Positions 1-47,689 of a stretch of DNA of 47,689 nucleotides are shown here, piece after piece; within the stretch, counting starts at the first letter, position 1; the number at the start of each line of letters is the position of its first letter. The DNA comes from a virus: the IMG/VR virus record IMGVR_UViG_3300044993_000286, positions 1 through 47,689 of that record. One strand, written 5' to 3'. The position numbers were made by a program, and so were the translations under genes. The notes beneath the pieces were generated by a model. That model ran no database searches. It saw only the letters and a list, made by a program, of their open reading frames with translations, and was not told where the DNA came from.

Positions 1-127
1 TAATCTTGCTTTTTATTCAGGACATAAAGACCAGTCAAAATTTCTTGTCGGAAAATTTCTTATAACTCCCGAAGAAGCTTCAAAGATAATTGAAGAAAGA
101 GGAGACATTAAGTTAGAGGAAAACTTT
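1..127. repeat. terminal direct repeat copy 1, identical to 47563..47689 (overlap of a circular or circularly permuted assembly)
   Basis: Read base by base: taatcttgctttttattcagg...gttagaggaaaacttt occurs at both window ends (127 nt). Confidence 0.95.
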
Positions 128-3100
128 GGATTTGATGCAGAAACAAAAGTTTTCACTCTTAAAGAACTTTATGAAGCGGCTAAAAAGAGATTTACAAATT
201 CACTAACAGACCCTGAAGATAATCCCGAAAGAGTTGAAGAACTCAGCAAAATATTTGAGCATTCTTTCGCTAATAACATAGTGTTTTTGGAAAAATTTCA
301 TAACAGAACACTGTCGAATATTGCAGAAAACGGAATAATTACCAAAAAAGCTCAAAAGAAATGGATGCTTGAACCGTTTACTTTAATGAAAAGAACACAG
401 GGTCTTAATTCCAGACAAGTACGATTTAATGCAAATGACATAGCGGAAGCTTTATTAGACAGAGAAGAAGCACTTAAAGCTAAATCTGCCTCTAAAACTT
501 CACAGGAAGGCTCAGGAGACGAAGAAACTGAAAAGCCTATCTTAGATATGGCTGAAAGAAAATCGAAGATTCAAGAGGTTGCAAAAGCGTTAGGAGATGA
601 AAGATATATTATTCTCAATTCTATTAATAGCGATGGAGATAGTACTCATGGAATGCCTTGGGTTAATGATTACAAATTTAAAGTAAGAAATAAAGACGGT
701 ACCATAGGATACAAGCCTTACGATGCTCATTTGGATGGCGGACAATTGATGAGAGATGATATATTTGAAGCAATGCTTACATCAATTGGAGAAGACATTG
801 AAGTTAAAGGAGCTGAAGTAGGTGCTTTCAAAGGTGTTACTATTCATCAGGGAAACGGTATTCAATCGGGTATATTTTCAAAGAAAGCTATATTCAAAGC
901 TCCTAAAAAATTATCGGATTGGATGAGAGCACAAAATATTCATTCAATCGAATATGATACCACAATGAAAGTATTGGGTAACAGAAAAGGAGTTGATTAT
1001 AAAATTAAACCCGATGGTACAATAGAGTTTTTAGAAACTCCGACAATTTATACCCGTAAATGGGATTCAAACACTTATCTGATGTCTGATGAAACTTATA
1101 AGCTGAATAAGCCACACAGAATGTTAAAGCAACTTTTTACCAATATATGGTCGGATACTCCCGAAGGGGTAGCTGCTCTTAATTCGATGCTTGAGTACTT
1201 CAAGGACAGAATAGAAGGAAAGAAAAGTTATCGAATTATGACCGATGAAAATGGTAATAAAATAGAAGTTGACAGATTAAGTTACGCAATAGAAAAATTC
1301 TTAAAGAATGATTTATCCGAAGATGATTTTATCCATGAAGCTCTTTTGAATAATGAAGTCGGTATAGTTGACAGACTTGCTATCTTTTTATCCAATCATG
1401 ACAGTAAGTCTTGGAGATTCATGAGAGATGAAATTTTTGATAAAGAACTTGATAATGAATACAAAGAAAATGAAGAAAATGATTTGGCATATTTCAAAGA
1501 CTTTGGTATTCAAAACAAGTTATTTGAATCAATAGATGTTACTCCCGCTATTCTTGCAAGTGTTAACAGTATAAGAAATTATACCGAAACAGCCTTAAAA
1601 CGATATCTTATGAATGAGATATTAAAGCCTAAGGTTAAAGAAGCAATGACTTCAACTCTTACTCCGCAATTTTCTTATGTTACAAATCATATCAGAAGAG
1701 GAGAAATATATTACGGCAGAGATGCCGCAAAACAAATAATCGATTTCAAAACTAAGAAAACATTAGGAGAAGCTTTTAAAGAAGCAAAGAGAAAAAATAA
1801 AGACCTTGAACTTGTAATTATAAGAGCTCCGGCTGATTCACCGTCCGGTATTAGAGTTGTTAAGCTTAAAGGTTTTATCGATGCTCCCGGTACAGGAGCG
1901 TATGTTCACCCGGATGAATATTACAATCTTGGCGGAGCTGATAACGATATCGATAAGATTACTACATATTTTAGTTTACCCGAAGAAGTAAAAACATATT
2001 ACAAAACTAAAGCAAATCAATGGTATGATTCCGAAGGAATTGCTATTGAAGCAAAACAGAATCCTGAATATTTGGAACCAAGATTTCCGACCATTGTTTT
2101 TGATTCTTTGAGTAATGCAATTGTTAATCTCAATGCTTATAAAGGAGTTCATATATTAGGAGCGGGATTAAATCATACAAACAGAATGCTGACTATTCAT
2201 GATTGGGTTGCACAAAAACACAACGGCGAACAAGTAATTACAATTTATGCCGATGATACTCCTGAAAACAAAGCAGCATTTGAGCTGATAAAAAAAGCCA
2301 ATGAAATTAACGGTTATCTTGGTTACGGATGGGAAGGATTCAAAACCAAAAAAGAAGGAAAGATAGCAATTAAATATTTGGCTAAGCTTAACAGTAAAGA
2401 TGTAATAAGCAGACATCAAAGAGACATTGTTAATTATGCAGCCGATGCTTCCAATGGAGACCCTGTTAAAGATGTTTCCATAATCAAGTCTTATGTTAAC
2501 AGAGACATGTGGATATATCCGAATGGTTTTAATCCAAAAGAAATACCGGGTTTTCATATCTATACTGATTTCAACAACAATCTTTACAAAAGACTTTCGG
2601 CATTAGACAGCATTTATGCCGACAGGAATAACTACGAAAAGGAAATATTGCCTAATGGAAGAGCAGTAATAAAAAGATATAACATCAGACAGATACTTGA
2701 AATAGCCAGAGATTATGCTGCTGAAATAGACAACAACTTTGAAGAAATGCGTGGTGGTGTATCGGGCTATATGTATCGAGTTTATGAAAAATTAGGAAGA
2801 CAAGCGGAGAAGTTCTTAAGTCTTCCCGAAACAAATTATTATTCTTGGATAGGTAACGCAAGTGCGGTAAGAAAGCTTATTTCTCAGGTAAATGATTTCT
2901 TTAAGAAGAATCCCGAAGGAGCTAAAATAGCGGAGTTTTTCTTTGGTAAGAAGTATTTTGGATTAGCGTTTTCGGATTCCGAATACACAAACAGAGCCCG
3001 TACCGCTATTCAGACATTGGAAGCTAAAAGAGAAGAAATTGAAGATTCGATTAAGTACAGAGGATTGTCTCCTTATGAAATAGAAATGGAAAAGCTTCAA

Positions 3101-6100
3101 GAGCAGGCGGAAGAAATTCAAAGACAAGTTAATTCGATGTTGAATTTTTACAAAAAAGAACCTTATAAACCTAATTTTGTTGATGTACTTAAAGAACACA
3201 GTTTCAAAGTTTTGTTATCCGATTTAAGAGCCAATGATATCATCGATTTAGCTTCTATTTGGCATGTGATATCAAAAGGTAAAATAGCTCTTGAAAATAA
3301 CAGTCATAGTAATGTCATATTGGTTCGTGATGTCATTAATGACTTAACAAAAATTTATTCCGATGTAAGAAAAGCCAAAGCTGAAGGAGACAAAAATATT
3401 GAAAATGAATGGGTTCTTAAGGTCAATGAGATAATGGATACAATTCCCGACAAGAGCTTAAGAGAATTTGCGGAAGCGTTACTTATTTCTTCGGTTCGTC
3501 CTCAAAAAAAATCGTTTGCGACTTACACTTATCCTACATTTAAGGACTTAAAAGAGCTAATAACTTCTTCAAAAAGTCAAAAATTCTTAAAGACCATATA
3601 TGATACGAAAAGCATAGAAATAAGTCCCGAAAGCGCTTATTTTTATTATTCGAATATGTCGGAAAATGAGATACGAAACTTTGTCATGGATTTTCCCGGT
3701 AACAGCGATAAGCTTTACAAAGCTATTATAAACTTTAAAGAGCAGGGAAAAGATTATTTCAGTTCAGGATTTAACGATGCAATTGCAAGACTTCCTTTTA
3801 TTAATAAAAAGACCATTTACGATTTATTTCACACTTATCAAACAATAATAGATTTTGCCAATAAAAATCTTGATACTGTAGCAATGACTACAGAAGAAAC
3901 AAAAAAGTTTATTGAAAAGGAAATTTTAGACGGAAAACCTTATGATGCTCCTTTATTGAAAGCATTTGACAATGTAAGTTTTACCGCTAAGTTAACGGGA
4001 AAGCAATTGGATGTATATGATTCTTTGAAAGAAAGACTTAAAATAATTTTGAAGAATAAACCATACTTAATTTCAACCCTTCAGGGACATTTTATTAACT
4101 GGCAAATGAAATATCAGGCTAATTTGCCCGTTACTTTGAAAGACATTACTCTTCCGCAATTACAAAAATTTGTTGACTATTTAGAAAAGAAAGCTTTTGA
4201 CAATACTTTCAAACTAAAAGGTAAAGCATGGGTTCAAACTCCTCAAGACTTTGCAGATACCGTTAATTTTTACGATACAAAAACTAATCTTGTTACGATG
4301 GTTATCGGTTCGGGTAAAAATGCCAAAATTGTTAAAGTAGAAGTGCCTTCTTCCCGTGTAACCAATTCTATTCTTGTAATTGACGGTATTCAGAATGAAT
4401 TGAATGCCCGTATTAAAGAAATAGAAAAGTTTATGAATCCCGACGGTGATGATGAAATTAAGGTAGTTTCTTATAAAACCGATGCCGATGGTTTGGATTT
4501 ACTCGATGAGAAAGGACAGAGAATCCCCGATAAAGACATTATCGTAATCAATCCGAGTTACATTAAAGCTCAGATTCCTTACGAAGATTATCAAAAATTA
4601 TTTGAATATGCATTGTCTTCACATGAAGCAAAATCTTTAAGAGGTATGAAGAAAGAAGATGCTTATGTGAGGTACTTAAAAAATAAGCTTAATGAAGCCT
4701 TAAACGCATATCGTGATGTCGAGAATAAAGTTTACAGCATTACTTCAAATAATAAGACAAGAAAACTAAAAGCTTATGAAATAGTTCTTGAAATACAAAG
4801 ATTTTTTCAAGCCGCTAATCAAAAAGGTTACAGACTTATCAATGACCCTTATCATTACAGACGATTATTTAAAAATCGTTTCGAAGATAAAGAACTTGGA
4901 TTTGGTATTCCGGGCTTTGAAGAAAGTCGTTTAATCAGAGTAACCGATTTTATTGAAAAAATGACTAATGATATTTTTTCGGGTAAAACCGAAAAATACA
5001 CAAATATGGGTTTGAATGTATGGCAATTGATAAATTGGAATAACGATATTTATCACATGCGTTTTAAGGTATCGGATAACAATTATCAAACGATAGAAAG
5101 ACAATTAAATGAAGTAGGAATTAAAACAGGAACCGATGTTTTTTGGTATGAATATGCCAAAATGGTTGAAAGATATAAATCTCTTAAAAAAGAAGACGGT
5201 AGTCCTTTGTATCCGTTTTTACATAATCCTCCCAAAGAATTTTTTGATATACCGAGATGGTACAGAGAAGGATATTTTCCACACAGAGAACATACCAAAA
5301 GTGTTATACGGGAAAGAATGCAAGCAATTCTTAAAGTAAAAGCACCTAATACCGAAGAATATCGAAAAGCTCAATTATGGCTTATAAACGACGGAAACAC
5401 TGAACTTACAAATATAGAAGATACTCTTAAAGATATTCTTTTTGATAAAAAAGATGACAAGAAATATGCAAGAATTACCGCTTCAGTGTCCGGACATTTA
5501 AAATCCAGAAATGGTGATTTGTTTATACCCGGTTACAGAAGAGATTACAGAGTTTATGAAGGATATTTGAAAGATATCACTAAACAGCTTTTTAATACCA
5601 TGATGGTAGCTGTTCATAAGCATAATATGGCAAGAATGCAAAAGGAATCTTTGACGGGAGTCAATAAAATGACTTATGAAGAAGCTACTAAATTAAGAAT
5701 GTTTTTGGACATTCGAATGCTTGATGTATTAGGTTATCCTTCTCAATTTCCCGACAGTTATGTTGATGCTTTGAAACTTGACGGTACATTCTATCATAAG
5801 CTTACCAATGATTATTGGATAAGAAAAAAGTATGCTTTTGTGGATAGAATCCTTCGTATTGAAGAAGATACTCCCGACGAGTTAAGAGCAAGGAAAATAA
5901 ACAAAACAATCGCAAGTTTAAGTAATCTGGAAGCAACATGGGCTATGATGCCTTTATTGGCTTCTCCTAAATTTATGATTACGAACAGATTTTCGGGTGC
6001 TATGACTACCATAGTAAACGCAGGAATGGAGTATTTTCTTAAAGCACATAAAATGTCGGAAGTAACGAAATATGTCAATCATATTCGTTCTTATTCCGAT

Positions 6101-7114
6101 ATGGTTGATTTTGTTTCTCAACATGGTGGTATAGAATCATTTATTAAAAATGAATTGGTATTATCTCAAAATGTTAAGTTAGGAGATGTTACCGCTTTTG
6201 TTAAGGATGTTGTACAATTTTACAAAGAAGGTAAAGATGTTCCTTTGGTGAAAATGTATGAATTGGCTAAACAAAGAGGCTTAACACAAGAGTTTGTAGA
6301 TAAAGCCGCTTATTTCATGAGAGCTTCTGAAATTAAAAACAGAGTTTATACATGGTTTGCTCATTATATGAAAGCACATGATACACTCTACAGAAATTCT
6401 TATGATGTTCCCAAAGACAGAGTAATATTAGCGGGAGACCCTTGGTTAGTTGCGATAGCAAACAAAGGTGTTGCCGCTACTCAGTATCTTTACGATTCTC
6501 TTAATCGTCCTGCTTTTGCCAGAACAGCACTTGGTAAGATGTTAACTCGTTTTCAGTTATATACTTACAATAACTTAAGATGGCGAAAACAGCTTATGGA
6601 TGCTGCTCGATATGAAGATTGGAGAAGTGCAGATGGTAAAAGATTGGCAAATTTAGTTGCAATGGATATGATGGTATTAACATTAGCTACATTTTTTCCC
6701 GGAACGATATTTTCCGCTTCTTTGAATCAACCGTATGGATGGGTTAAAGACTTGGTTACATGGTTATTTGGAGATGAAAAGGAAAGAGAAAAAGCATTCT
6801 TTGGAAGTTTACCTTATCCTGCAAATATAGTACAACCTGTACTTCCTCCTTTTACAAGATTTTTGATAAATCCCATAGTAGCTTTATTTGATTTGGAGAA
6901 GTTTACCAATACATTGGTATGGGGTTTATTTCCGTTTGGAAGAATGGTTAACGAAACAAGAAAATCCATCGACAACCCGCTATTAATGCCCGAGAAGTCT
7001 TTTGGTATTCCTATGTTTACATTGGTGAAGAAAATTCAGAAGGATTATAAGAGAAGAGAAGAAAAGGAGCAGGAAGAAAATCCCGCTCCCGTAATCAGAC
7101 GACAAGCTTCTTAA
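1..7114 (+). CDS. giant virion-associated protein with RNA polymerase core, C-terminal part (full protein 3,018 aa; beta-prime-like DPBB catalytic motif)
   Basis: There is no stop in frame 2 between positions 2 and 281, so the GTG at 281 is internal. The protein contains LVIIRAPADSPSGIRVVKLKGFIDAPGTGAYVHPDEYYNLGGADNDIDK (nt 1807-1957), with DxDxD at 1940-1954. The C-terminus has hydrophobic segments. Stop TAA at 7112-7114. Confidence 0.8.
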   Translation, partial: NLAFYSGHKDQSKFLVGKFLITPEEASKIIEERGDIKLEENFGFDAETKVFTLKELYEAAKKRFTNSLTDPEDNPERVEELSKIFEHSFANNIVFLEKFHNRTLSNIAENGIITKKAQKKWMLEPFTLMKRTQGLNSRQVRFNANDIAEALLDREEALKAKSASKTSQEGSGDEETEKPILDMAERKSKIQEVAKALGDERYIILNSINSDGDSTHGMPWVNDYKFKVRNKDGTIGYKPYDAHLDGGQLMRDDIFEAMLTSIGEDIEVKGAEVGAFKGVTIHQGNGIQSGIFSKKAIFKAPKKLSDWMRAQNIHSIEYDTTMKVLGNRKGVDYKIKPDGTIEFLETPTIYTRKWDSNTYLMSDETYKLNKPHRMLKQLFTNIWSDTPEGVAALNSMLEYFKDRIEGKKSYRIMTDENGNKIEVDRLSYAIEKFLKNDLSEDDFIHEALLNNEVGIVDRLAIFLSNHDSKSWRFMRDEIFDKELDNEYKENEENDLAYFKDFGIQNKLFESIDVTPAILASVNSIRNYTETALKRYLMNEILKPKVKEAMTSTLTPQFSYVTNHIRRGEIYYGRDAAKQIIDFKTKKTLGEAFKEAKRKNKDLELVIIRAPADSPSGIRVVKLKGFIDAPGTGAYVHPDEYYNLGGADNDIDKITTYFSLPEEVKTYYKTKANQWYDSEGIAIEAKQNPEYLEPRFPTIVFDSLSNAIVNLNAYKGVHILGAGLNHTNRMLTIHDWVAQKHNGEQVITIYADDTPENKAAFELIKKANEINGYLGYGWEGFKTKKEGKIAIKYLAKLNSKDVISRHQRDIVNYAADASNGDPVKDVSIIKSYVNRDMWIYPNGFNPKEIPGFHIYTDFNNNLYKRLSALDSIYADRNNYEKEILPNGRAVIKRYNIRQILEIARDYAAEIDNNFEEMRGGVSGYMYRVYEKLGRQAEKFLSLPETNYYSWIGNASAVRKLISQVNDFFKKNPEGAKIAEFFFGKKYFGLAFSDSEYTNRARTAIQTLEAKREEIEDSIKYRGLSPYEIEMEKLQEQAEEIQRQVNSMLNFYKKEPYKPNFVDVLKEHSFKVLLSDLRANDIIDLASIWHVISKGKIALENNSHSNVILVRDVINDLTKIYSDVRKAKAEGDKNIENEWVLKVNEIMDTIPDKSLREFAEALLISSVRPQKKSFATYTYPTFKDLKELITSSKSQKFLKTIYDTKSIEISPESAYFYYSNMSENEIRNFVMDFPGNSDKLYKAIINFKEQGKDYFSSGFNDAIARLPFINKKTIYDLFHTYQTIIDFANKNLDTVAMTTEETKKFIEKEILDGKPYDAPLLKAFDNVSFTAKLTGKQLDVYDSLKERLKIILKNKPYLISTLQGHFINWQMKYQANLPVTLKDITLPQLQKFVDYLEKKAFDNTFKLKGKAWVQTPQDFADTVNFYDTKTNLVTMVIGSGKNAKIVKVEVPSSRVTNSILVIDGIQNELNARIKEIEKFMNPDGDDEIKVVSYKTDADGLDLLDEKGQRIPDKDIIVINPSYIKAQIPYEDYQKLFEYALSSHEAKSLRGMKKEDAYVRYLKNKLNEALNAYRDVENKVYSITSNNKTRKLKAYEIVLEIQRFFQAANQKGYRLINDPYHYRRLFKNRFEDKELGFGIPGFEESRLIRVTDFIEKMTNDIFSGKTEKYTNMGLNVWQLINWNNDIYHMRFKVSDNNYQTIERQLNEVGIKTGTDVFWYEYAKMVERYKSLKKEDGSPLYPFLHNPPKEFFDIPRWYREGYFPHREHTKSVIRERMQAILKVKAPNTEEYRKAQLWLINDGNTELTNIEDTLKDILFDKKDDKKYARITASVSGHLKSRNGDLFIPGYRRDYRVYEGYLKDITKQLFNTMMVAVHKHNMARMQKESLTGVNKMTYEEATKLRMFLDIRMLDVLGYPSQFPDSYVDALKLDGTFYHKLTNDYWIRKKYAFVDRILRIEEDTPDELRARKINKTIASLSNLEATWAMMPLLASPKFMITNRFSGAMTTIVNAGMEYFLKAHKMSEVTKYVNHIRSYSDMVDFVSQHGGIESFIKNELVLSQNVKLGDVTAFVKDVVQFYKEGKDVPLVKMYELAKQRGLTQEFVDKAAYFMRASEIKNRVYTWFAHYMKAHDTLYRNSYDVPKDRVILAGDPWLVAIANKGVAATQYLYDSLNRPAFARTALGKMLTRFQLYTYNNLRWRKQLMDAARYEDWRSADGKRLANLVAMDMMVLTLATFFPGTIFSASLNQPYGWVKDLVTWLFGDEKEREKAFFGSLPYPANIVQPVLPPFTRFLINPIVALFDLEKFTNTLVWGLFPFGRMVNETRKSIDNPLLMPEKSFGIPMFTLVKKIQKDYKRREEKEQEENPAPVIRRQAS

Positions 7115-7364
7115 TCAATTCAATTGTCTTTTTATCGAAAACAAATACAATATCATGTTCTGCAGTTTTCCGATTAACAATTTCATAGATTAAGTATTCT
7201 TCATCATCATCTTCAAGAATAATGGAGATGAGTAAATTGTCCTTCCGTAGATGTTTTATGTGTTTGTATATTTCTTTTTTATATTCAGGCAACATAATGC
7301 CTACAGTACCGGAAGGCTTTCTGAATTCTCCATCATTTTCAAATATTCGGATTTTTTTGCTCAT
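7095..7364 (-). CDS. hypothetical protein (89 aa)
   Basis: ORF with a charged, non-repetitive sequence. It is the last gene of the minus block. Its 3' end overlaps the 3' end of the giant gene by 20 nt. Confidence 0.55.
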   Translation of the reverse strand: MSKKIRIFENDGEFRKPSGTVGIMLPEYKKEIYKHIKHLRKDNLLISIILEDDDEEYLIYEIVNRKTAEHDIVFVFDKKTIELIKKLVV

Positions 7365-7572
7365 TTAAACAACGGAGTCCGTATTCTATTTCGGCTTCAT
7401 GAAGCTCCAACTGAACAAGAGCAAGTTCTTGTTGAAGTTCATATTCTTCAAGAGCATTGTAAGCTGCTTCCATTTCTTCTTCAGCCGGTGTTTTAGATTC
7501 GTTTATTTCCGTTATTTTTGCTCTGTGTTTTTCGATTTCTTTGCGTAAAGCATCGATATTTGTATTTTCCAT
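7339..7572 (-). CDS. hypothetical coiled-coil protein (77 aa)
   Basis: The start was moved to the internal ATG (MENTNIDALRKEIEK...), which follows the SD AAAGGA. The longer ORF to 7662 has no SD. Confidence 0.6.
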   Translation of the reverse strand: MENTNIDALRKEIEKHRAKITEINESKTPAEEEMEAAYNALEEYELQQELALVQLELHEAEIEYGLRCLNEQKNPNI

Positions 7573-7587
7573 AAGGAGTTCCTTTCT

Positions 7588-7836
7588 GTGTATATTATTG
7601 AAAAAAATGATAAAATCCTTATCAATCTTGATAAGGCTTGGAATTTTAAAGCAAAGGTTCAAAGCTTAAAAGAACTTGGTGCACGTTATAATCCTGCCAA
7701 AAAAGAATGGATTATATCGGCAGAACATAAAGCAAAAGTTCTTGAAGCTATGAATGAAACATTTACGACTACGGAGGTCGAAGATGCTGATAAATGGTTC
7801 CAACAATGGTGGAACGATTTAGATTTTCCAATTTAG
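7588..7836 (+). CDS. hypothetical protein (82 aa), a lone plus-strand gene inside the minus-strand block
   Basis: GTG start 9 nt after AAGGAG. The ORF fills an otherwise empty 283-nt gap almost exactly. The sequence looks like a protein and contains LKELGARYNPAKKEWIIS. Confidence 0.55.
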   Translation: MYIIEKNDKILINLDKAWNFKAKVQSLKELGARYNPAKKEWIISAEHKAKVLEAMNETFTTTEVEDADKWFQQWWNDLDFPI

Positions 7837-7855
7837 CTCCTGTATTTATGATTGA

Positions 7856-8188
7856 TTAACGGTTATCACCGTCTCCTTTAATGGTATTGTTATATTGTCT
7901 TGCTTGAAGCTTTTGGAGATTATTTCGCATCACGGATTCCAAATCGAGTCCAAGTCTCCTTGCAAGCACTGCACAAAACCAGAGCACATCTCCTATTTCA
8001 TGTGCCATCTTAACGGACATTGTATCTAAATCATAATCGTTTCTGATATATTTAGCGTATTTACCTGTTACTTCTCCGGCTTCGGAAGCAAGTCCCGCAA
8101 CTAAATATTGTAACGAAAATGATTCTTTAGTACAAGTTTTCATGGCTTCTCTTTGATATTCGTTAATTTCCATTTGGTTTCCTTTCAT
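7856..8188 (-). CDS. mazG: MazG-like nucleoside triphosphate pyrophosphohydrolase
   Basis: EINEYQREAMKT...LVAGLASEAGEVTGKYAKYIR...AHEIGDVLWFCAVLARRLGLDLESVMRNNLQKL matches the all-alpha MazG pattern (E-x2-E ... E-x2-D). Alternative starts at 8173 or 8227. Confidence 0.8.
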   Translation of the reverse strand: MKGNQMEINEYQREAMKTCTKESFSLQYLVAGLASEAGEVTGKYAKYIRNDYDLDTMSVKMAHEIGDVLWFCAVLARRLGLDLESVMRNNLQKLQARQYNNTIKGDGDNR

Positions 8189-8194
8189 AATTGG

Positions 8195-8243
8195 CTCTCT
8201 CGCTGCATTAGAAGCCCACTGTGGCACGAACGCAACGAGAGAG
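8195..8243 (-). promoter_or_regulatory. GC-rich inverted repeat enclosing a degenerate half copy (R4) of the conserved R element, upstream of the MazG-like gene
   Basis: ctctctcg (8195-8202) pairs with cgagagag (8236-8243). On the minus strand the loop carries GTGCCAC and TTCTAAT at the same relative spacing as in R3. Confidence 0.4.
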
Positions 8244-8257
8244 GGTAAATATATAGG

Positions 8258-8479
8258 TTAATTAGATTCTTGCTTTAATTCGTCCCAAAAGACCCAAAAA
8301 GGTTTTTCAAGAAAAATTACTTCATCTTCCATATATGGGTCATCAATTACAACCATAACGGCGTATGTTTTGGTTTGATTGGATTTAATCAAAGGAACTT
8401 CGATTACTTGTCTGCATACTGCTTTTCGTTGAAGTGAGTCCATTGATTTCCAATAAGTTTTTCCCGGTTCTATTTTCAT
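8258..8479 (-). CDS. hypothetical protein (73 aa)
   Basis: ORF preceded by the SD AAGGAG. ATGA-type overlap with the upstream gene. Confidence 0.65.
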   Translation of the reverse strand: MKIEPGKTYWKSMDSLQRKAVCRQVIEVPLIKSNQTKTYAVMVVIDDPYMEDEVIFLEKPFWVFWDELKQESN

Positions 8480-8673
8480 TGTTGCTCCTTTTGTTTGATT
8501 TTTAATTGTTTCTCCCGCTCTTCAGCGAGTTTGATAAAAGATTCTTTTGAATGGGGAATAATAGCAATAAGAAGTATCTTTAACAAATCTTCGGGAGATT
8601 TATTACTTCCTATTTGTGATAACAAAGCTATCTGTGCTGTTATCATTATCATTGTGAATAATGTTTTAATCAT
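8476..8673 (-). CDS. hypothetical membrane protein (65 aa)
   Basis: SD TAAGGAGA. Hydrophobic N-terminal segment (LFTMIMITAQIALLSQI). Confidence 0.6.
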   Translation of the reverse strand: MIKTLFTMIMITAQIALLSQIGSNKSPEDLLKILLIAIIPHSKESFIKLAEEREKQLKIKQKEQQ

Positions 8674-8706
8674 TTTGTTTCTCCTTATAATTGCTTGTTT
8701 AACGCA

Positions 8707-8751
8707 TTTAGAGAGTCAAGGTGGCACAAATACATTAAAAAGATACATTTA
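8707..8751 (-). promoter_or_regulatory. conserved R element copy R3 (candidate phage-specific promoter)
   Basis: The minus strand reads TAAATGTAT-N25-GACTCTCTAAA. Block spacing is identical to R1 and R2. It is intergenic, about 33 nt upstream of the start at 8673. Confidence 0.5.
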
Positions 8752-8775
8752 TACCACCTGCTCAAGATTTAAGGC

Positions 8776-9030
8776 TTATAAGCCGTTTTTTTCAGCAATT
8801 CGATTGACATACACTTTATTGTCTTTGTCCCATAATTCGAAATGGGGAAATTTTTTCTTAAAGTAGTAAAGTGAATGTATCATTGCGGTTTTTTCTTCGT
8901 CGGAATCCGTTTCTATTTCCATTGTCTTATCCGGGCTTAATTCCGTTATTGCAACTCTTAATTGCAGGAATCTTCCTTTTCTTCCGATTGAATTTTTCTT
9001 TTCGATTCTGTTGATTTCTTTGATTTTCAT
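8776..9030 (-). CDS. hypothetical protein (84 aa)
   Basis: ORF with the SD AAAGGAA. Confidence 0.6.
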   Translation of the reverse strand: MKIKEINRIEKKNSIGRKGRFLQLRVAITELSPDKTMEIETDSDEEKTAMIHSLYYFKKKFPHFELWDKDNKVYVNRIAEKNGL

Positions 9031-9046
9031 GGTTATTCCTTTCTTT

Positions 9047-9688
9047 TTAGCTATCGGTATTCGGTTCGTAATTGGGAACTTTATACTCGGGTAGCAGTGA
9101 TTTATGTTGATTGGCTGTTATATAAGCCAATTCTTTTTGATTAAGGTCTTTTATTTGTATTGTTTTGATTTCTTGTTTCATTATAGCGGGATGGTCTTCG
9201 GGTAATTGAGTTACTGTTTTTGCCGTTTTAGATGTTTTATTAGTAATCAGTTCTAAGAGTTCAGAATTATTGGATAAGAAGTTTTTCAGCTTATCGTATT
9301 CTTCTTTAGTCAGTTTATCGATTGAATAGAGGTAATCTTCATCGGTAAGAAAGATAGGGTTAATACTGCGATTTACCGAATTAAACGATACTATTTTCTT
9401 TCGAGTACCGAGAACTTTATCGGCATCCTGAATTCTCCAACGGATAAACAGCTTCATTCTTTCAATCATTTTTTCAATTGTCTTGGCATGAATTGCAAGA
9501 GCTTTTGATTGTTCTTTATAGAAATTAGCACTGTTTTCCATAGTTTCAAGTTTCCAAGTGTAACTGTCAACTATTTCGGCATCCGTTTTATTCCGCTCCA
9601 CTCCCGCTATTAACTCGTTAAATTCTTCCTGAATTTCTTTAATAGCGGGATGCATAAGTTCATTGAGACTTACTTTTTTGAGTTCCAT
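9047..9688 (-). CDS. hypothetical helical protein (213 aa), possibly Gp157-like
   Basis: SD GGAGAAG. Long amphipathic helical N-terminal half. The Gp157 suggestion rests only on general resemblance and context. Confidence 0.6.
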   Translation of the reverse strand: MELKKVSLNELMHPAIKEIQEEFNELIAGVERNKTDAEIVDSYTWKLETMENSANFYKEQSKALAIHAKTIEKMIERMKLFIRWRIQDADKVLGTRKKIVSFNSVNRSINPIFLTDEDYLYSIDKLTKEEYDKLKNFLSNNSELLELITNKTSKTAKTVTQLPEDHPAIMKQEIKTIQIKDLNQKELAYITANQHKSLLPEYKVPNYEPNTDS

Positions 9689-10146
9689 AGCTTCTCCATT
9701 TGACCTTTAAGATTATTTCCTACTCCTATTGCTCTGATGATTGTGTTAATCGACATATTATGCTTTCTTGATAATTCTATAACACTGTAATGATATTTCA
9801 TTCCTTGTTTTTTCTTTTCTAAATATTCGTTATAGATTTCATAATCTCTGATTTTTGTAGTATCGATAAATCCTTTCTCTTTTAGCTCATCAAATGACAT
9901 TTGGTTTAATTCTTCAATGGTATATCCTTTGCCTTCTCGCATAATTCTTAAAACTCTAAAATCCGATAAGTTATATTTCAGACCTATATCAAATGCTGTT
10001 TCGTTTAAGCTTACATTTTTACGGTTTTCTCTGTACTTTTGAGCATCCAATCTGATTTTATTGTTTCTGAATGCTTTCCAGGGGACTAATCCCAATGAAT
10101 GTAATTCTGAAAATTTCAATGACTTATACATTTTGATTCCTTTCAT
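9670..10146 (-). CDS. putative helix-turn-helix (HTH) DNA-binding or transcription regulator (158 aa)
   Basis: The C-terminal IRDYEIYNEYLEKKKQGMKYHYSVIELSRKHNMSINTIIRAI resembles a sigma region 4 / Mor-type HTH. Alternative start at 10131. Confidence 0.45.
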   Translation of the reverse strand: MKGIKMYKSLKFSELHSLGLVPWKAFRNNKIRLDAQKYRENRKNVSLNETAFDIGLKYNLSDFRVLRIMREGKGYTIEELNQMSFDELKEKGFIDTTKIRDYEIYNEYLEKKKQGMKYHYSVIELSRKHNMSINTIIRAIGVGNNLKGQMEKLWNSKK

Positions 10147-10339
10147 TTTGTTGGATAATTGCTTCTATAATCTTTATTGAATTCTGATAACCTTCGATGT
10201 TATATTCATAAGCTTTAACGGCATCAGAATCAACGAAATTTGGAACTGCTTTTTCCAATTCCAAACGCTTTTTTTCGGATTCAAGAGACTTTAATAATGT
10301 CTCTTTAATCTTACACAATTCTTCTGTTTGGGTTGACAT
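10124..10339 (-). CDS. hypothetical coiled-coil protein (71 aa)
   Basis: SD GAGGAG directly upstream. Confidence 0.6.
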   Translation of the reverse strand: MSTQTEELCKIKETLLKSLESEKKRLELEKAVPNFVDSDAVKAYEYNIEGYQNSIKIIEAIIQQNERNQNV

Positions 10340-10624
10340 TTACTCCTCTCTTTCTATTAGTTTAATTAATGATTGAAGCATATCGACCTCCTCAAAGGTC
10401 AAATAAAACTGTTCTGCGTTTGGGTAGTAAGTCGGAAATAAGGTAACTTCCTTGTCTTTGGTATTCACATAAGCTATTTCGTCTCCATTATGCTCTAAAA
10501 CTATTCCCCATTCAAGGATGGGTTCTGTGGTAAAGTTAACCACAAGAGACCGTTTTTTACGAGCATGAAAGTTACTATTATGAAATTTTTGATTGAATTT
10601 CTCGATTATCTCATCAATCTTCAT
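10340..10624 (-). CDS. hypothetical protein (94 aa)
   Basis: SD GGAGA. Overlaps the upstream gene by 11 nt and abuts the next gene. Confidence 0.6.
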   Translation of the reverse strand: MKIDEIIEKFNQKFHNSNFHARKKRSLVVNFTTEPILEWGIVLEHNGDEIAYVNTKDKEVTLFPTYYPNAEQFYLTFEEVDMLQSLIKLIEREE

Positions 10625-10811
10625 CTTTTGTCTCCATTAATCTTTTTAATACTTCTTTTTGTGGTAATGCAATAAAATAACAATCTCCATTTAACATCAC
10701 CACACAAGCAGTATCCTCATCATCCTTTCTAATTTCCGATATATAGGATTTATTGAGATAAACAGTTGAATTCTTACCCCGTAGGGGGAATTCTATAAAT
10801 TCAGGTTTCAT
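10614..10811 (-). CDS. hypothetical protein (65 aa)
   Basis: SD GAGGAGAA. Overlaps its neighbours. Confidence 0.6.
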   Translation of the reverse strand: MKPEFIEFPLRGKNSTVYLNKSYISEIRKDDEDTACVVMLNGDCYFIALPQKEVLKRLMETKDED

Positions 10812-11092
10812 CTTTGTTTCTCCTCTTCTTTAACATCAAAAAGATACTCCGAGTATATATCAGACATTTCAGGTATCCATAAAGTATATTCTCGGTCAGG
10901 TTTAATGTCAAACGATTCTAAATATGTTCTTAAAATAAAATTGTCATTTTTACTCAAATGTGATAATAAATTTTTGAATATTGAATATAATGATTTTGGT
11001 ATAAAGCCAACACATGTCTTTCCATTATATTCAACCGTACATTTGATTAGATGTTTATACGCTACATCATCAAGTGATATTATTTTTAACAT
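10808..11092 (-). CDS. hypothetical protein (94 aa)
   Basis: The start was moved to MLKIISLDD, which follows the SD AAAGGAGGA. Confidence 0.6.
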   Translation of the reverse strand: MLKIISLDDVAYKHLIKCTVEYNGKTCVGFIPKSLYSIFKNLLSHLSKNDNFILRTYLESFDIKPDREYTLWIPEMSDIYSEYLFDVKEEEKQR

Positions 11093-11106
11093 CTTTGTTC
11101 CTCCTT

Positions 11107-11517
11107 TTAAATTAAATAAAATCTGCATAACGGAGGGTACATTCCCTCAATGCAGTACTGTGCCGGGTCAAATTCTACTTCGAAGCATTTTGCTTCTTTG
11201 CTGTAATAAACCGACACATTTATATCAGCGGGTATCTTGCATATTTTGTATGCTCTCTCGCCGACTAATAGTTCTATGTCGTCTCGCTCCTGCGACTTCT
11301 TCCATCTTATCTTCCTTTCCGGGACAAAGTCAGGGCGGAAATGAGAGAAATACGCCCAGAAATTAAAATTGTCCTTTTTGGCACATTCTACGAATTCCTG
11401 CAAACTTTCTATTTGATTACGCAGATTGTAGTAATCTACAATCCACATAATTTGATTTATTCTTTTCTTTTCTTTTTCAGAAAGATTAGTCATAATATCA
11501 ACTGCTGTTGCTTCCAT
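11107..11517 (-). CDS. hypothetical protein (136 aa)
   Basis: The start was moved to MEATAVDIM, which follows the SD AAAGGAAAA. The upstream extension runs through an intergenic hairpin. Confidence 0.6.
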   Translation of the reverse strand: MEATAVDIMTNLSEKEKKRINQIMWIVDYYNLRNQIESLQEFVECAKKDNFNFWAYFSHFRPDFVPERKIRWKKSQERDDIELLVGERAYKICKIPADINVSVYYSKEAKCFEVEFDPAQYCIEGMYPPLCRFYLI

Positions 11518-11554
11518 TGTTTTTTCCTTTTTTTTAATTGATTGTTTAATAACT

Positions 11555-11579
11555 CGGGAGACTTGCTGAAGGTCTCCCG
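11555..11579 (-). promoter_or_regulatory. GC-rich intergenic hairpin (8-bp stem, 9-nt loop)
   Basis: cgggagac (11555-62) pairs with gtctcccg (11572-79). No U-tract follows on either strand. Confidence 0.45.
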
Positions 11580-11660
11580 CCAAAATCTGACTGCTGTTTT
11601 TTACAAATAGTCTAACTAATAACAGGACTCCTTTCTTTGATTAGTGAATAAATTAGTGAA

Positions 11661-11969
11661 TTAAATAGTGATGAATTTGTCTTTTGCTAAAAAGTATTGT
11701 GGCTCATATTTTCCGTAAGAATCAACTCTGGCATTTTCAATAAGATATTCTTTAGTAGTATGATAAATCTTTCCCATAATCCAGATTGCAATATCTTTAA
11801 AGTTAAGAGTATCCACCATCTCTTTGTTTATTCCGATTTCTTGAGTTTTGTTCATTGTATGAACCGGACTGTAAATCTTTTTGATTAAGGTACCATTCTC
11901 GATTATACCTATCAATTTACGCTCTCCGTTCAGATGAAGAAAAACCTTAGAATTCACCGTTGTAATCAT
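11661..11969 (-). CDS. hypothetical protein (102 aa)
   Basis: ORF with an ATGA-type overlap with the RusA-like gene. Confidence 0.6.
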   Translation of the reverse strand: MITTVNSKVFLHLNGERKLIGIIENGTLIKKIYSPVHTMNKTQEIGINKEMVDTLNFKDIAIWIMGKIYHTTKEYLIENARVDSYGKYEPQYFLAKDKFITI

Positions 11970-12382
11970 AATAAAGTATCTCCTTCTGAAATGTTTTCCA
12001 CAAAGATTGTTGTTTTTGCTTTTTCACCAAAAGTCTTATAAGAATACAACTTAACGATATTGGCATCATTGTGATAGACAATTCCCTGCATTGCATCAAG
12101 AACCAACTTTTGCAAATTATCCAAATCGGGTTTGGTAATTTTTTCATTTACATTTTTTCGGGTCGATTGAGGTTTGATGAAATAAAATGTTATCGATATT
12201 GACAAAGGTTGGTTATTGTAAGGAATAAAATCTTGAGGTAATTGGTCTATCAATTGTTGTCTTATATGTGCTACTGCATTTGTTACTACGGGAGGTTGCC
12301 AGGAATGTATTTTCCCGTTATTAACCGAATGTCTCGCACTTTGTTTTGGTATCGGTTCTCCAAGAATCGTGAACTGTAACAT
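11966..12382 (-). CDS. rusA: RusA-like Holliday junction resolvase
   Basis: ILGEPIPKQSAR ... KPDLDNLQKLVLDAMQGIVYHNDANIV matches the RusA signature (PDxDNL..K...DAL......DD). The start was set at MLQFTILG after the SD AAAGGAA. Confidence 0.75.
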   Translation of the reverse strand: MLQFTILGEPIPKQSARHSVNNGKIHSWQPPVVTNAVAHIRQQLIDQLPQDFIPYNNQPLSISITFYFIKPQSTRKNVNEKITKPDLDNLQKLVLDAMQGIVYHNDANIVKLYSYKTFGEKAKTTIFVENISEGDTLL

Positions 12383-12403
12383 AAGTATTCCTTTGTTAAT
12401 ACA

Positions 12404-12423
12404 GCTCCCTCTTTCGAGGGAGC
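12404..12423 (-). promoter_or_regulatory. very stable GC hairpin with a GAAA tetraloop on the minus-strand RNA
   Basis: gctccctc (12404-11) pairs with gagggagc (12416-23). It is intergenic, between 12435..12863 and the RusA-like gene, and has no clear U-tract. Confidence 0.5.
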
Positions 12424-12434
12424 CTGCAAATTGA

Positions 12435-12863
12435 TTAGTACTTTCCGAATTTAGTTCCGTCTTCGTGATGGAACTTATTGAACAACTCGGTAGTATTGTA
12501 CCATTTGTCTTCATATCTGAAAAGTTGGTGAGTGGAAATACCCGTAATGGCTTTACCGTATCTTACACCGTTCTTCTTCACATTACCGTAAACCAAAACG
12601 GTTCCTTTTTTGACTTTCTTAGCCAACTCTTCAAATGTATAAGGACGAGGACGACTGTCTGTTTTCTCAACAGCATCACCGAGTATCTCATACTTCTTTG
12701 CACTTCTGTAGTACTCAATGCCTTCTATCTCATTATTGATGAGAATATTCATTGAGTTATCATCAAAACGGGTAACGATTGCTACTGCATCATTTCCCCA
12801 ATCTTTGCAGGTAAATTTCTTTCCTGCCAACAAAGCGATTGCTTCTTTTTTCGTCATTTTCAT
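12435..12863 (-). CDS. hypothetical protein (142 aa)
   Basis: ORF overlapping the stop of the primase-helicase gene (ATGA). Confidence 0.6.
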   Translation of the reverse strand: MKMTKKEAIALLAGKKFTCKDWGNDAVAIVTRFDDNSMNILINNEIEGIEYYRSAKKYEILGDAVEKTDSRPRPYTFEELAKKVKKGTVLVYGNVKKNGVRYGKAITGISTHQLFRYEDKWYNTTELFNKFHHEDGTKFGKY

Positions 12864-14632: not shown

Positions 14633-14633
14633 G

Positions 14634-15191: not shown

Positions 15192-15208
15192 TGTAGATTC
15201 CTTTCTTT

Positions 15209-19325: not shown

Positions 19326-19458
19326 TTTTTCTTTTTAAGTACTCGATAAATTCATTGACTCTTTTAAATGTTCTTTTTGATTTAAGTTTATTTGAAACAT
19401 TATATTCTTTTACTACAAATTTACCTAACCAAAAAGATATTACGAATCTTTTGTTCAT
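19303..19458 (-). CDS. small basic hypothetical protein (51 aa), below the ORF-track length cutoff
   Basis: Hand translated: MNKRFVISFWLGKFVVKEYNVSNKLKSKRTFKRVNEFIEYLKRKNEERYGN. SD AAAGGAAAA. The stop overlaps the next start. Confidence 0.35.
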   Translation of the reverse strand: MNKRFVISFWLGKFVVKEYNVSNKLKSKRTFKRVNEFIEYLKRKNEERYGN

Positions 19459-19478
19459 TTTTTTCCTTTCAATTGAAA

Positions 19479-45619: not shown

Positions 45620-47689
45620 ATGCAAGAGTTGTACAACTACCAACCATATAATGAGTTGGAAGATACTCAAGCAAATAAACAGGAGGAAAACTTTCTTCTT
45701 TCTATTCCCTCGCAATTATTTTATGGTTTTTTAGAGGGTTTAACAACACTTCCGATAGCTCGTTGGGCTAATGCCGAACCAACCAATACAGTTGACCAAA
45801 TAGCAAATTCATTGGGTCATTTGATGGGATTTGTCGGTATTAACCCCATAGGAATAGCCGGTAAAGTAGCAAGTAAACTTTTTGTAAAAAGCACAATGGG
45901 TAAATACTTAGCCGGCTTTTCCAAACATACCAGAATGCCTTCACTTCCAATGTATCTTGGTAATAAAATATCAAATAAGATAAACCAAATAGGATTAACT
46001 CCTGCATTGGAAGCTATGGAATTCACCCGTAAAAATCCCATACTTAAAGATATGGCTTATTCCGCTGTTAATCTTGGTTCTCAAATGGCTGTAGGAGGAG
46101 CTCCTATTTATGATTGGTCATTAGGAGCGATAGAAGACAGGATGAAATCGGGAGTAATGGGTATGTTGTTTGGAGCGGGTAATTCATTAATAGGAAACAC
46201 TTTTACAAGAGGTGGTAGATTTGATATTAATCCGTTAAAGAATGAAGAAATACAAGCTTTAATGAAAGCTGATAAACAGCTTGCTTCCGAAGCTATTAAA
46301 GCATCGGATTTCAGAAACGGATTAGTCAGAGCTATAGTATCGGGACTTGTATTTTCAACTCCTTCATTGGTACAAGGAGCTCCTCTTCCGATAGTACTTT
46401 ATGATACCGCTTTGAATGCTTTTTTTGGTTATAAAGAATCTCCTCATTGGGTAAAACAAGCTCGTGCTATTTCGGAACAATTTGCCGATGCTCCTCATTT
46501 ATTACTTGACCCCGAAGGTACAATCAAACAATTCAAAGGAGCAGATGTATGGGATAATCTTGACAAAAGAACCAAAGAAACTCTTCAGGAAATGGCTGAT
46601 ATTCAATTGGGTGGTTTAATTAAAAATGCTCAGGATGAAAAAATTTCAATACCCGGTGTTAAAGTAGGAGAAGCAATAAGAGAGGTTTATAAAAACCTTA
46701 AAGTAGTTCCGAATGATGCAAAACCAAAAGAAGGTGAAATAAGAGAATGGGAATACAAAAAGATTCAACAGACTTATAAAATACAAGACTTAATTCATGA
46801 ATCTATTGTTGATGCCGCTAAAAACAATAAAGAGCCTACGGATGAATACATTGCCGACTATGTCAGAAAAGGATTAGTAGAAGCAGCTAAAGAATCCTTA
46901 GGTATTACTTCAAGACTTGGTACTTATAAGCTTTTTGAGACTTTGGATAATATGGAAAGTACCATTAGAGAAGGTCTTTCAAATAAAAGCAATTTTATAA
47001 TAGACAAAACTTATAAGGACAATGGTCTTTCGAGTATGTTCACCGAAGCTTTAGACAATATAGTTGTTAAAAGTTTTAAGGATGAACCTTATACGGAAGA
47101 AACTTTTACCGACAGATATGTCGATATAATCAAAATGGTTTCTAAGTATGCAAAAGATAAGACGCTTACTTATGACCAATTCAAAAATGAATTAAATATG
47201 ACTTATGATATAGTTCCCGACAAATCATTCAGAAAAGCTTATGTTTTTGCAAATCAATCAGTTCCGAGATATGAACTTACATACGATAATGGCGGAATAA
47301 GACGAGTAGCGGATGTTACGGAAAGAGGAACTGTCAGACCTGTAAGCTATCAACCAAAACCTTTAATACATGACATGTTAGATGGGGATGTCTATGAATT
47401 TAGTACCGTTAATGATTACACTCCGATACATGACAGAGAAGGTCATGATTTACTTTTATCTCATGCAAGTGCCAATGGTTTCAAAAAATCTTATGAAGGA
47501 ATTTATGCTCACTTAATAGAGAAACTTTATAAAGCTAAGATTGATAAAGGAACCGAAACTCATAATCTTGCTTTTTATTCAGGACATAAAGACCAGTCAA
47601 AATTTCTTGTCGGAAAATTTCTTATAACTCCCGAAGAAGCTTCAAAGATAATTGAAGAAAGAGGAGACATTAAGTTAGAGGAAAACTTT
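45620..47689 (+). CDS. giant virion-associated protein with RNA polymerase core, N-terminal part (continues at 1..7114 across the circular junction)
   Basis: ATG at 45620 is preceded by the SD AAGGAGAA. Hand translation shows an open frame to the window end (MQELYNYQPYNELED...). The frame (position mod 3 = 2) matches ORF 281..7114. The N-terminus has Gly-rich hydrophobic stretches (GHLMGFVGINPIGIAGKV, GVMGMLFGAGNSLIGN). Confidence 0.85.
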   Translation, partial: MQELYNYQPYNELEDTQANKQEENFLLSIPSQLFYGFLEGLTTLPIARWANAEPTNTVDQIANSLGHLMGFVGINPIGIAGKVASKLFVKSTMGKYLAGFSKHTRMPSLPMYLGNKISNKINQIGLTPALEAMEFTRKNPILKDMAYSAVNLGSQMAVGGAPIYDWSLGAIEDRMKSGVMGMLFGAGNSLIGNTFTRGGRFDINPLKNEEIQALMKADKQLASEAIKASDFRNGLVRAIVSGLVFSTPSLVQGAPLPIVLYDTALNAFFGYKESPHWVKQARAISEQFADAPHLLLDPEGTIKQFKGADVWDNLDKRTKETLQEMADIQLGGLIKNAQDEKISIPGVKVGEAIREVYKNLKVVPNDAKPKEGEIREWEYKKIQQTYKIQDLIHESIVDAAKNNKEPTDEYIADYVRKGLVEAAKESLGITSRLGTYKLFETLDNMESTIREGLSNKSNFIIDKTYKDNGLSSMFTEALDNIVVKSFKDEPYTEETFTDRYVDIIKMVSKYAKDKTLTYDQFKNELNMTYDIVPDKSFRKAYVFANQSVPRYELTYDNGGIRRVADVTERGTVRPVSYQPKPLIHDMLDGDVYEFSTVNDYTPIHDREGHDLLLSHASANGFKKSYEGIYAHLIEKLYKAKIDKGTETHNLAFYSGHKDQSKFLVGKFLITPEEASKIIEERGDIKLEENF
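47563..47689. repeat. terminal direct repeat copy 2, identical to 1..127
   Basis: Same 127-nt string as 1..127. The unique genome length is therefore 47,562 bp, which is divisible by 3, so the reading frame is preserved across the junction. Confidence 0.95.

Follow-up and report, generated by a model that had tools for sequence, protein, structure and literature searches.

Virion RNA polymerases and the locus under study

RNA polymerases (RNAPs) that are of the two-barrel type and are delivered with the virion have, to our knowledge, been shown by experiment only in crAss-like phages (gp66) and in Thermus phage P23-45. The virion-delivered, single-chain two-barrel RNAP is already known as a kind of system, and the subject of this report is a candidate further member, a giant gene in the viral genome IMGVR_UViG_3300044993_000286 of the IMG/VR collection. 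The window, as the term is used here, is the whole stretch of 47,689 nucleotides (nt) that was analysed. The product of the gene has 3,018 amino acids (aa), and sequence comparison and a predicted model support the assignment of residues ~850-1400 as a single-chain two-barrel RNAP related to the crAss-like virion RNAP.

The gp66 protein of phage phi14:2 (locus tag Phi14:2_gp077, KC821624 45265-51807, 2,180 aa) has been established experimentally as a virion-packaged, rifampicin-resistant RNAP that transcribes the early genes (10.1101/2020.03.07.982082). It contains two barrels joined through a connector of ~140 residues, and its DFDID motif, in which position 4 is Ile or Val, is followed downstream by a bridge helix and trigger loop; the early promoters of phi14:2 lack a common motif, and in some crAss-like phages the RNAP and two neighbours are fused in a huge polyprotein that is 'likely cleaved' (10.1101/2020.03.07.982082). 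In Thermus phage P23-45, a two-barrel RNAP is likewise fused into a giant virion protein, gp96, that enters the cell with the DNA (PMC10770324), and the joining of a polymerase domain to an ejection scaffold thus has a precedent. The virion RNAP (vRNAP) of phage N4 (~3,500 aa) is packaged in the capsid, with a central polymerase placed between N- and C-terminal regions for injection and encapsidation (PMC5512222), and is described as the only RNAP needed for the early genes (PMC13434306).

The giant gene and its catalytic motif

The window ends are identical over 127 nt (1-127 = 47563-47689, an exact direct repeat), which indicates a circular assembly with 47,562 unique bp. A contig of 47,592 bp, Logan SRR35364708, is given alongside the circularly closed 47,562-bp window. 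The giant open reading frame (ORF) spans the circular junction on the + strand, from an ATG at 45620, with AAGGAG ahead of it, to the stop codon at 7114, and accounts for ~19% of the genome. The gene and the parts of its putative polymerase core are as follows:

45620..47689, + strand: giant gene, first part, residues 1-690; the final 127 nt duplicate nt 1-127
1..7114, + strand: giant gene, post-junction part; from residue 649 at nt 2 to the last base of the stop codon at 7114
605..2257, + strand: predicted two-barrel RNAP core, residues ~850-1400, from family-wide conservation and a model with a predicted local distance difference test (pLDDT) value of 84
674..1084, + strand: predicted barrel 1 (beta-like), residues ~873-1009, from invariant D893/G894, K925, K942 and K971 and the gp66 alignment
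830-832, 881-883 and 968-970, + strand: codons of the barrel-1 lysines K925, K942 and K971
1085..1642, + strand: predicted helical connector, residues ~1010-1195, aligned with the gp66 connector, with conserved KQ at 1024-1025 and PK at 1191-1192
1643..1969, + strand: predicted barrel 2 (beta-prime-like), residues ~1196-1304, with R1256-A-P1258 (nt 1823-1831), G1264, G1272-F1273 and H1284
1940..1954, + strand: putative metal-binding triad D1295-N-D1297-I-D1299 within GGADNDIDK, from the translation DNDID and conservation in homologues

Window positions 1817-1957 on the + strand encode IIRAPADSPSGIRVVKLKGFIDAPGTGAYVHPDEYYNLGGADNDIDK, the IIRAPADS...GGADNDIDK peptide of the giant protein. A preliminary description of this DNA had singled out the peptide as the catalytic signature of a beta-prime-type double-psi beta-barrel, and translation of the window recovers it and numbers the three aspartates 1295, 1297 and 1299, as claimed. 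The end of the span then given (1807-1957) is right, and its start precedes the codon of the first residue quoted by 10 nt and is out of frame, a trivial discrepancy. The Escherichia coli RpoC sequence that had been quoted for comparison is accurate, matching residues 421-470 of the K-12 protein, and the R-x-P-x5-G and H-x9-AD-x-D-x-D spacings are indeed equal in RpoC and the giant protein.

Conservation of the catalytic residues

The DxDxD triad alone proves nothing, because close to one occurrence is to be expected by chance; from the length and composition of the giant protein the expectation is 0.86, and exactly one is present. An extended pattern comprising R.P, the G/S position, the spacing and [AS]DxDxD, which was picked after the data had been seen, occurred in five of 20,000 shuffles.

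Homologues were collected by a word-indexed search, which returned 14 giant proteins of 2,903-3,561 aa, and by an exhaustive phmmer comparison of residues 800-1999 with 1.84 billion cluster representatives, which added another 106. The latter are mostly 2,600-4,150 aa long and share a matched stretch that corresponds to residues ~840-1400; no other part of the protein is conserved as widely across the family as the RNAP core. The motif G[A/M]DxDxD is found in 114 of the 120 homologues, and the remaining six comprise five short sequences (94-266 aa) and the full-length P0108. In a 96-sequence alignment, D893, K925, K942, K971, R1256, P1258, D1295, D1297 and D1299 are 100% conserved; mean column identity in a related alignment of 37 sequences (A2) is ~20%. 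The x positions of the triad vary freely among homologues (L, N, K, T, H and others at one, I, G, S and A at the other), as expected if only the carboxylates matter. Motif position 4 is I, G, S or A, with 24 GADLDGD and 19 GADLDID sequences as examples. At the level of sequence, these alignments show strict purifying selection on the catalytic set in more than 100 divergent homologues, and their diversity defines a minimal conserved set of three lysines, R-x-P and three aspartates.

Relationship to gp66

Homology to gp66 was not detected by plain BLAST or HMMER, and identity is ~12-18%. With hhalign, the family profile matched the single gp66 sequence at E 5.9e-4 over 484 columns, and a 99-sequence family profile matched a 31-sequence gp66 family with a probability of 90.6% and E 1.3e-6 over 340 columns. 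The hhalign span, residues 899-1305 of the giant protein against 986-1371 of gp66, takes in both barrels and the connector. In the alignment with the single gp66 sequence, K925, K942 and K971 are paired with gp66 K1012, K1027 and K1065, Q1025 with Q1116, K1192 with K1232, R1256 and P1258 with R1322 and P1324, the aspartates 1295, 1297 and 1299 with D1361, D1363 and D1365, and K1300 with K1366. The stretch from R-x-P to DxDIDK aligns without gaps, with gp66 reading RIPNQGQSSNDPLQIVGILPEAMGDTIVAYTEIPTKTGSDFDIDK and the giant protein RAPADSPSGIRVVKLKGFIDAPGTGAYVHPDEYYNLGGADNDIDK. When the N- and C-terminal modules of the giant protein were compared with gp66 by hhalign, nothing was found.

The two proteins have in common a single chain in the order barrel 1, helical connector and barrel 2, barrel-1 lysines that are in register, an Ile at motif position 4 (DNDID in the giant protein, DFDID in gp66), and an encoding gene in the virion module. 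However, the giant protein is longer (3,018 aa, against 2,180 aa) and adds a conserved hydrophobic N-terminal module and a PLxRFG-type C-terminal module. Many members of its family have Gly at motif position 4 (DLDGD), like the cellular enzymes, and the bridge helix, trigger loop and cleft-blocking domain of gp66 are not identified in the giant protein. The genome context of the Crassvirales is not found here either: the genome measures 47.6 kb and that of phi14:2 100.4 kb, in agreement with the earlier statement that it is half the size of crAss-like genomes, and the capsid and adaptor are of the SU10 type, the portal is of the P22 type, and the large terminase subunit (TerL) is nearest to those of a Vibrio podovirus and N4-like phages.

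Predicted structure of residues 840-1420

The AlphaFold2 prediction for residues 840-1420, for which the 37-sequence alignment A2 served as input, has a mean pLDDT of 84.2, a predicted template modelling (pTM) score of 0.78 and 333 residues with a pLDDT of at least 90. The modelled core runs from a strand-rich region (~873-1009) through an all-helical region (~1010-1195, the connector of ~185 residues) to a second strand-rich region (~1196-1304), and the aspartate loop lies between a short helix and the final strand of the second barrel. The beta-prime-type loop feature is present as GGADNDID (1292-1299), together with RAP (1256-1258), on the modelled barrel. The feature expected of the other barrel is given by the three invariant lysines in the modelled strand-rich domain 873-1009, as judged from the alignment and the model.

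In a Foldseek search of 350,542 PDB chains, the best match to this model was 6vr4_A, the virion RNAP gp66 of phi14:2, with E 2.4e-8 and a probability of 1.00. Later matches include the beta-prime subunit of the AR9 non-virion RNAP (nvRNAP), dozens of bacterial, cyanobacterial and plastid beta-prime chains, and maize RDR2 (ZmRDR2). There were 49 matches at E<=1e-3, and the 50 matches listed are all two-barrel RNAPs, with no unrelated fold among them. Against BFVD, the best matches were unnamed UniProt viral proteins (E 3e-24, TMq 0.64), presumably unannotated members of the giant-protein family. These are followed by a long series from uncultured crAss-like phages, by YonO-like 'RdRP' proteins and by one P23-45 protein, A7XX94, whose E of 3e-3 is far weaker than the values for the crAss-like proteins.

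The preliminary description had proposed a single-chain polymerase with a beta-prime-type barrel, and had suggested structure prediction followed by Foldseek as a check and a second barrel with conserved lysines as a feature to look for upstream. The check returned two-barrel polymerases with phi14:2 gp66 at their head, the lysines K925, K942 and K971 are invariant and aligned to lysines of gp66, and the proposal itself draws support from the fold match, the profile match and the catalytic conservation together.

Modules flanking the polymerase core

Three modules of the giant protein are conserved across the family (residues 1-300, 850-1400 and 2400-3000), and hydrophobic segments are confined to the first (71-89, 233-260) and the last (2789-2807, 2866-2884, 2928-2946). 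The regions outside the core are as follows:

45620..46519, + strand: N-terminal module, residues 1-300, with hydrophobic Gly-rich segments 71-89 and 233-260 and no match to a known family
2258..5254, + strand: variable middle, residues ~1401-2399, conserved only in the 4-8 closest homologues
5255..7057, + strand: C-terminal module, residues 2400-3000, predicted to be all-alpha, with a probable divergent PLxRFG-type domain (NF032893)
6449..6673, + strand: best PLxRFG stretch, residues 2798-2872

The giant protein itself matches NCBIfam NF032893 at E 7e-4 with 18.1 bits, against a curated cutoff of 100. The same model is matched by all 18 of the 18 aligned homologues, at a best E of 1.8e-10. 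The family hidden Markov model (HMM) also matches proteins of two cultured phages: gp6 of Klebsiella phage SopranoGao (Lastavirus), a 'PLxRFG protein' of 4,369 aa whose C-terminal part is matched at E 2.4e-9 (hhalign probability 66%), and PVS_24 of Vibrio phage vB_VspS_VS-ABTNL-3 (1,790 aa, E 8e-9). Their genes lie at the following positions:

3115-16224 of the SopranoGao genome (L012): gp6
17815-23187 of the Vibrio phage genome (L008): PVS_24

Like the giant gene, each of these is the last and largest gene of its virion block, and each product shares the C-terminal pattern FMR.SE..R ... TQFLY..NRP.F; unlike the giant protein, both lack DxDxD and any match to the polymerase core. PVS_24 is annotated as a 'putative DNA methylase', a label for which the analyses run here gave no support. 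An AlphaFold model of the C-terminal module is predicted to be all-alpha at a pLDDT of 55.9, and a Foldseek search with it gave nothing below E 0.8, the membrane-protein matches being meaningless at such confidence.

From these sequence relationships the giant protein is read here as a PLxRFG-type virion-block scaffold that would carry the two-barrel polymerase as cargo. A cpYpsA domain (PF12694, a SLOG-type nucleotide-binding domain) is inserted in the giant proteins of some family members (P0004 and P0011; L006 8911-18411), in the case of P0004 probably within an insertion of ~140 residues before the polymerase core. Such an inserted domain is consistent with a 'polyvalent' scaffold that takes up extra cargo domains.

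Interpretation and alternative explanations

Taken as a whole, the interpretation preferred here is that of a modular giant protein of the virion block, whose central 550 residues form a two-barrel polymerase homologous to gp66 and whose role in delivery is suggested by analogy; its probability is put at about 0.82. By analogy with phi14:2 gp66, N4 vRNAP and P23-45 gp96, the giant protein would be made late and packaged in the capsid. It would then be threaded through the tail into the host with the DNA, and the terminal hydrophobic modules may aid both incorporation and passage across the envelope. In the host, the three aspartates would bind Mg2+ for RNA synthesis, and the first phage genes, probably those of the leftward block 21922 -> 7095, would be transcribed independently of the host RNAP.

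Several results count against this interpretation. Global template modelling (TM) scores to solved structures are low (0.36 to 6vr4_A, with a root-mean-square deviation of 21 A), so that the fold match rests on the statistics of local 3Di+AA alignment and not on rigid-body superposition. The polymerase core was not detected when the giant-protein sequence was searched against Pfam, PHROGs, NCBIfam and PDB sequences with phmmer and HMMER, where the sole weak match, to phrog_11358 (3,431 positions, unknown function), falls at the C-terminus; HMMs built from 11 or 37 family members likewise had no match among PDB sequences. The profile comparison that had been proposed earlier as a check was thus borne out by hhalign, in its significant match to the gp66 family, and not by HMMER, which gave no polymerase match in these four collections. 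Alignment of the family with E. coli RpoC by hhalign found the correct stretch (421-470) at only E 0.17, and alignment with RpoB found nothing.

The elements that follow the second barrel in gp66 weigh on the same side. Within residues 1300-1800, neither a bridge helix nor a trigger loop could be recognised at a significant level, and the match by hhalign of residues 1344-1373 to the bridge-helix region of gp66 (1524-1553) is not significant at E 0.23; within the bridge-helix candidate (1344-1387), the helices 1350-1387 are modelled at a pLDDT of only ~55. Conservation is poor across residues 1400-2400. The early region of the phage yielded no recurring motif as a candidate for an early promoter, though the early promoters of gp66 are also without one, and a scan of the same region for sigma-70 promoters found 62 against 65.5 expected in shuffles, which is no enrichment. 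Activity, packaging in the virion and ejection are inferred from analogy and gene position, and neither the template (DNA or RNA) nor the product can be read from the sequence.

A different arrangement would be that of a polyprotein whose cleavage, either ahead of packaging or once it has been ejected, releases a membrane-active N-terminal part, the RNAP on its own and a PLxRFG part, so that the enzyme itself would be far smaller than 3,018 aa. The conserved modules are indeed separated by long, poorly conserved linkers, the fusion of a crAss-like RNAP with its neighbours is 'likely cleaved' (10.1101/2020.03.07.982082), and polyvalent proteins of the P1 DdrB type are processed (PMC5512222). 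However, neither the giant protein nor its neighbours gave a match to a protease domain, N4 vRNAP, the nearest functional analogue by size, is packaged unprocessed (PMC5512222), and the fusion is kept in ~100 divergent homologues of similar length; cleavage is accordingly considered unlikely, while deserving to be kept in mind. An active two-barrel polymerase with a role other than early transcription, such as that of an RNA-dependent RNA polymerase (RdRP) or a priming enzyme, is improbable. ZmRDR2 is among the Foldseek matches, gp66 and QDE-1 prefer single-stranded DNA in vitro (10.1101/2020.03.07.982082), and the genome has a primase-helicase-like gene and no recognisable DNA polymerase among its large ORFs. 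Yet the giant gene ends the virion module and is fused to a PLxRFG-type module of virion-block giants, its highest-ranking match, by structure and by profile alike, is to an enzyme proven to be a DNA-dependent RNAP of the virion, and a DnaB/primase-type protein is already encoded in the genome.

That the motif arose by chance, or marks a degenerate, non-catalytic barrel with a structural part in an ejection protein, has very little in its favour beyond the ~0.9 bare DxDxD motifs expected in a protein of this size and the silence of the routine family databases. Set against these are the invariance of the aspartates, of R-x-P and of the three lysines in ~100 sequences at ~20% identity while the x positions are free, the rarity of the extended pattern in shuffled sequences (5/20,000), and confident fold and profile matches to polymerases only. 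A virion RNAP of the N4 type, with a T7-like palm fold, would fit the size and tripartite layout of the giant protein and the position of Schitoviridae as the best cultured TerL relatives after one Vibrio phage (25-27% identity). There is no Pfam match to the T7-like RNAP families, though, and a palm polymerase is ruled out by a model with two beta-barrels and by Foldseek matches that are all two-barrel enzymes, which leaves this explanation with next to no weight.

Comparison with other systems

Besides its likeness to gp66, the modular protein with a gp66-like polymerase proposed here can be compared with several other enzymes. The P23-45 protein differs in belonging to a siphovirus and in being fused to a tape measure, and P23-45 has a second, non-virion RNAP, whereas none is seen in the scanned ORFs of the present phage. 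N4 vRNAP is similar in size and in its tripartite layout, and the TerL of the present phage is distantly N4-like; as the N4 enzyme has a T7-like palm fold and not two barrels, this is analogy and not homology. The layout also parallels that of polyvalent virion proteins in general (PMC5512222). YonO, QDE-1, RDR and the cellular beta/beta-prime enzymes have in common with the giant protein two barrels, the lysines and a DxDxD active site. RDR2, beta-prime and YonO-like proteins are matched far less strongly, with E values of 1e-4 to 1e-3 or without significance at the sequence level. Neither YonO nor QDE-1 is a virion protein, and in the cellular RNAPs the barrels are split between two subunits.

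From the crAss enzymes the present system differs in genome type and size, in its extra terminal modules and in the occurrence of both Gly and Ile forms of the motif. The databases searched hold no annotated entry for the giant-protein family, and no paper describing it was found. The motif strings of the family were not found in the supplements of the P23-45 paper (PMC10770324), whose catalogue covers '23 RNAP families'. It is conceivable, and put forward with some reserve, that the family marks an undescribed and widespread podovirus-like lineage with genomes of ~45-55 kb, in which a gp66-like RNAP has been built into a PLxRFG-type ejection scaffold. The putative lineage contains more than 100 protein clusters at 50% identity, with a genomic GC content from 35% to 74%.

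If this reading is correct, one molecule of 3,000 aa would both open the way into the cell and start transcription. Virion transcription of the crAss type would then not be specific to the Crassvirales and would represent a modular strategy of long standing, either common to this lineage and the crAss-like phages or ancestral to the latter; the PLxRFG giants that lack a polymerase in Lastavirus and VS-ABTNL-3 would be the same scaffold with other cargo. Independently of that reading, the present result places the same catalytic core in a large family that is unrecognised by Pfam, PHROGs and NCBIfam and whose phages have genomes half as large as those of crAss phages and a different capsid and terminase lineage, and more than 100 clusters of 'hypothetical' giant proteins gain a concrete annotation. 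The cultured Klebsiella and Vibrio podoviruses with a polymerase-less scaffold could be of use for experiments. A further point of relevance is the proposal that the eukaryotic polymerases of RNA interference are derived from phage enzymes of the same clade.

Genome context and relatives

Scans with PHROGs and Pfam place the giant gene last in a + strand block that begins at 22323. This virion block encodes TerL (phrog_38), portal (phrog_156; P22_portal), capsid (phrog_1328; SU10_MCP), SU10_adaptor and tail proteins, and also carries several large proteins without a family match. The giant gene converges on a minus-strand block (21922 -> 7095) with a primase-helicase of the DnaB/primase type, a Sak4-like annealase and RusA. 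Genes of the virion block that are referred to here are as follows:

23008-24462, + strand: terminase large subunit
31779-33872, + strand: 697-aa protein with CBM_4_9 and Laminin_G_3 (concanavalin-like) domains
41938-44274: 778-aa protein, one of the two encoded directly upstream of the giant gene
44268-45593: 441-aa protein, the other of the two; the one match obtained for this pair is a sub-threshold DUF445

The nearest cultured TerL is that of a single Vibrio podovirus, vB_VspS_VS-ABTNL-3, followed by those of Schitoviridae (N4-like) at 25-27% identity, and the same Vibrio phage is one of only two cultured relatives by capsid protein. The combination of an N4-like TerL with an SU10-type capsid and adaptor and a P22-type portal points to a virion module that is either mosaic or deeply branching. 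The 697-aa CBM/Laminin-G protein is likely a receptor-binding or tail-fibre protein that recognises polysaccharide.

The preliminary description had placed the giant gene at the end of a run of ejection-type virion proteins. Its terminal position is correct, while the ejection-type character of its neighbours finds no backing, as Pfam and PHROGs are uninformative for them. It had also stated that no other RNAP gene is visible, and this holds for all ORFs large enough to encode one: no other RNAP match was obtained with PHROGs or Pfam among the 30 largest remaining ORFs, and no other ORF exceeds 800 aa. No tRNAs were found in the genome.

The homologue P0004, 48% identical, is encoded on a 32-kb contig, and the contigs with more distant family members measure 45.7 and 34.6 kb, lengths of up to 47.2 kb being on record for the same protein. 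The same synteny is present on all the relatives' contigs that were examined, and its occurrence in distant relatives suggests a coherent phage lineage and not an isolated case. A tblastn search of 50,697 phage records (INPHARED) with the core, the C-terminal module and the core of a distant member gave no match, and a pattern scan of IMG/VR with the single giant protein found no relative.

Host

The genome has a GC content of 34.7%. Of 53 starts, 72% are preceded at a distance of 4-20 nt by a Shine-Dalgarno (SD) core, whereas the figure for control positions is 11%; the use of SD sequences is therefore real, and the earlier claim that nearly every gene has a strong one is overstated. Strong SD use is unusual for Bacteroidota, and a host outside this phylum had been suggested on that ground. 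This suggestion is weakened by a GTDB search covering 185,579 genomes, since the only three relatives are in metagenome-assembled genomes (MAGs) labelled Bacteroidetes, Bacteroidota and Rhodothermales (GC 42-74%), MAG binning being weak evidence for a host. When the single giant protein was used against GTDB genomes, no relative was found. The Bacteroidetes relative (L009, CAWAJW010000012.1) is on a 1.84-Mb contig with 49% identity in its best segment, and its gene is frameshifted into several frames, which could be due to long-read indel errors or to a decaying prophage. The Bacteroidota and Rhodothermales relatives (L010 and L011) are on contigs of 52.9 kb and 2.3 kb, respectively.

Non-coding regions

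Two non-coding regions of the genome have distinctive features. An iteron-like cluster at 22210-22342 lies in the 400-bp divergent intergenic region, directly upstream of the first + strand gene, and consists of CTTATATAR / TTATATAG[AG]ATA in three 31-nt copies together with inverted copies; outside the cluster, the core 9-mer hardly occurs in the genome. An origin, an array of regulator-binding sites and a late-promoter region are possible roles for the cluster. Within the minus-strand block, a gap of 346 bp (20544-20889) contains several stable hairpins and may be a boundary between early and middle transcription or a small-RNA gene. Terminator-like hairpins are present at 20678-20700 on the minus strand and at 20522-20541 on the + strand.

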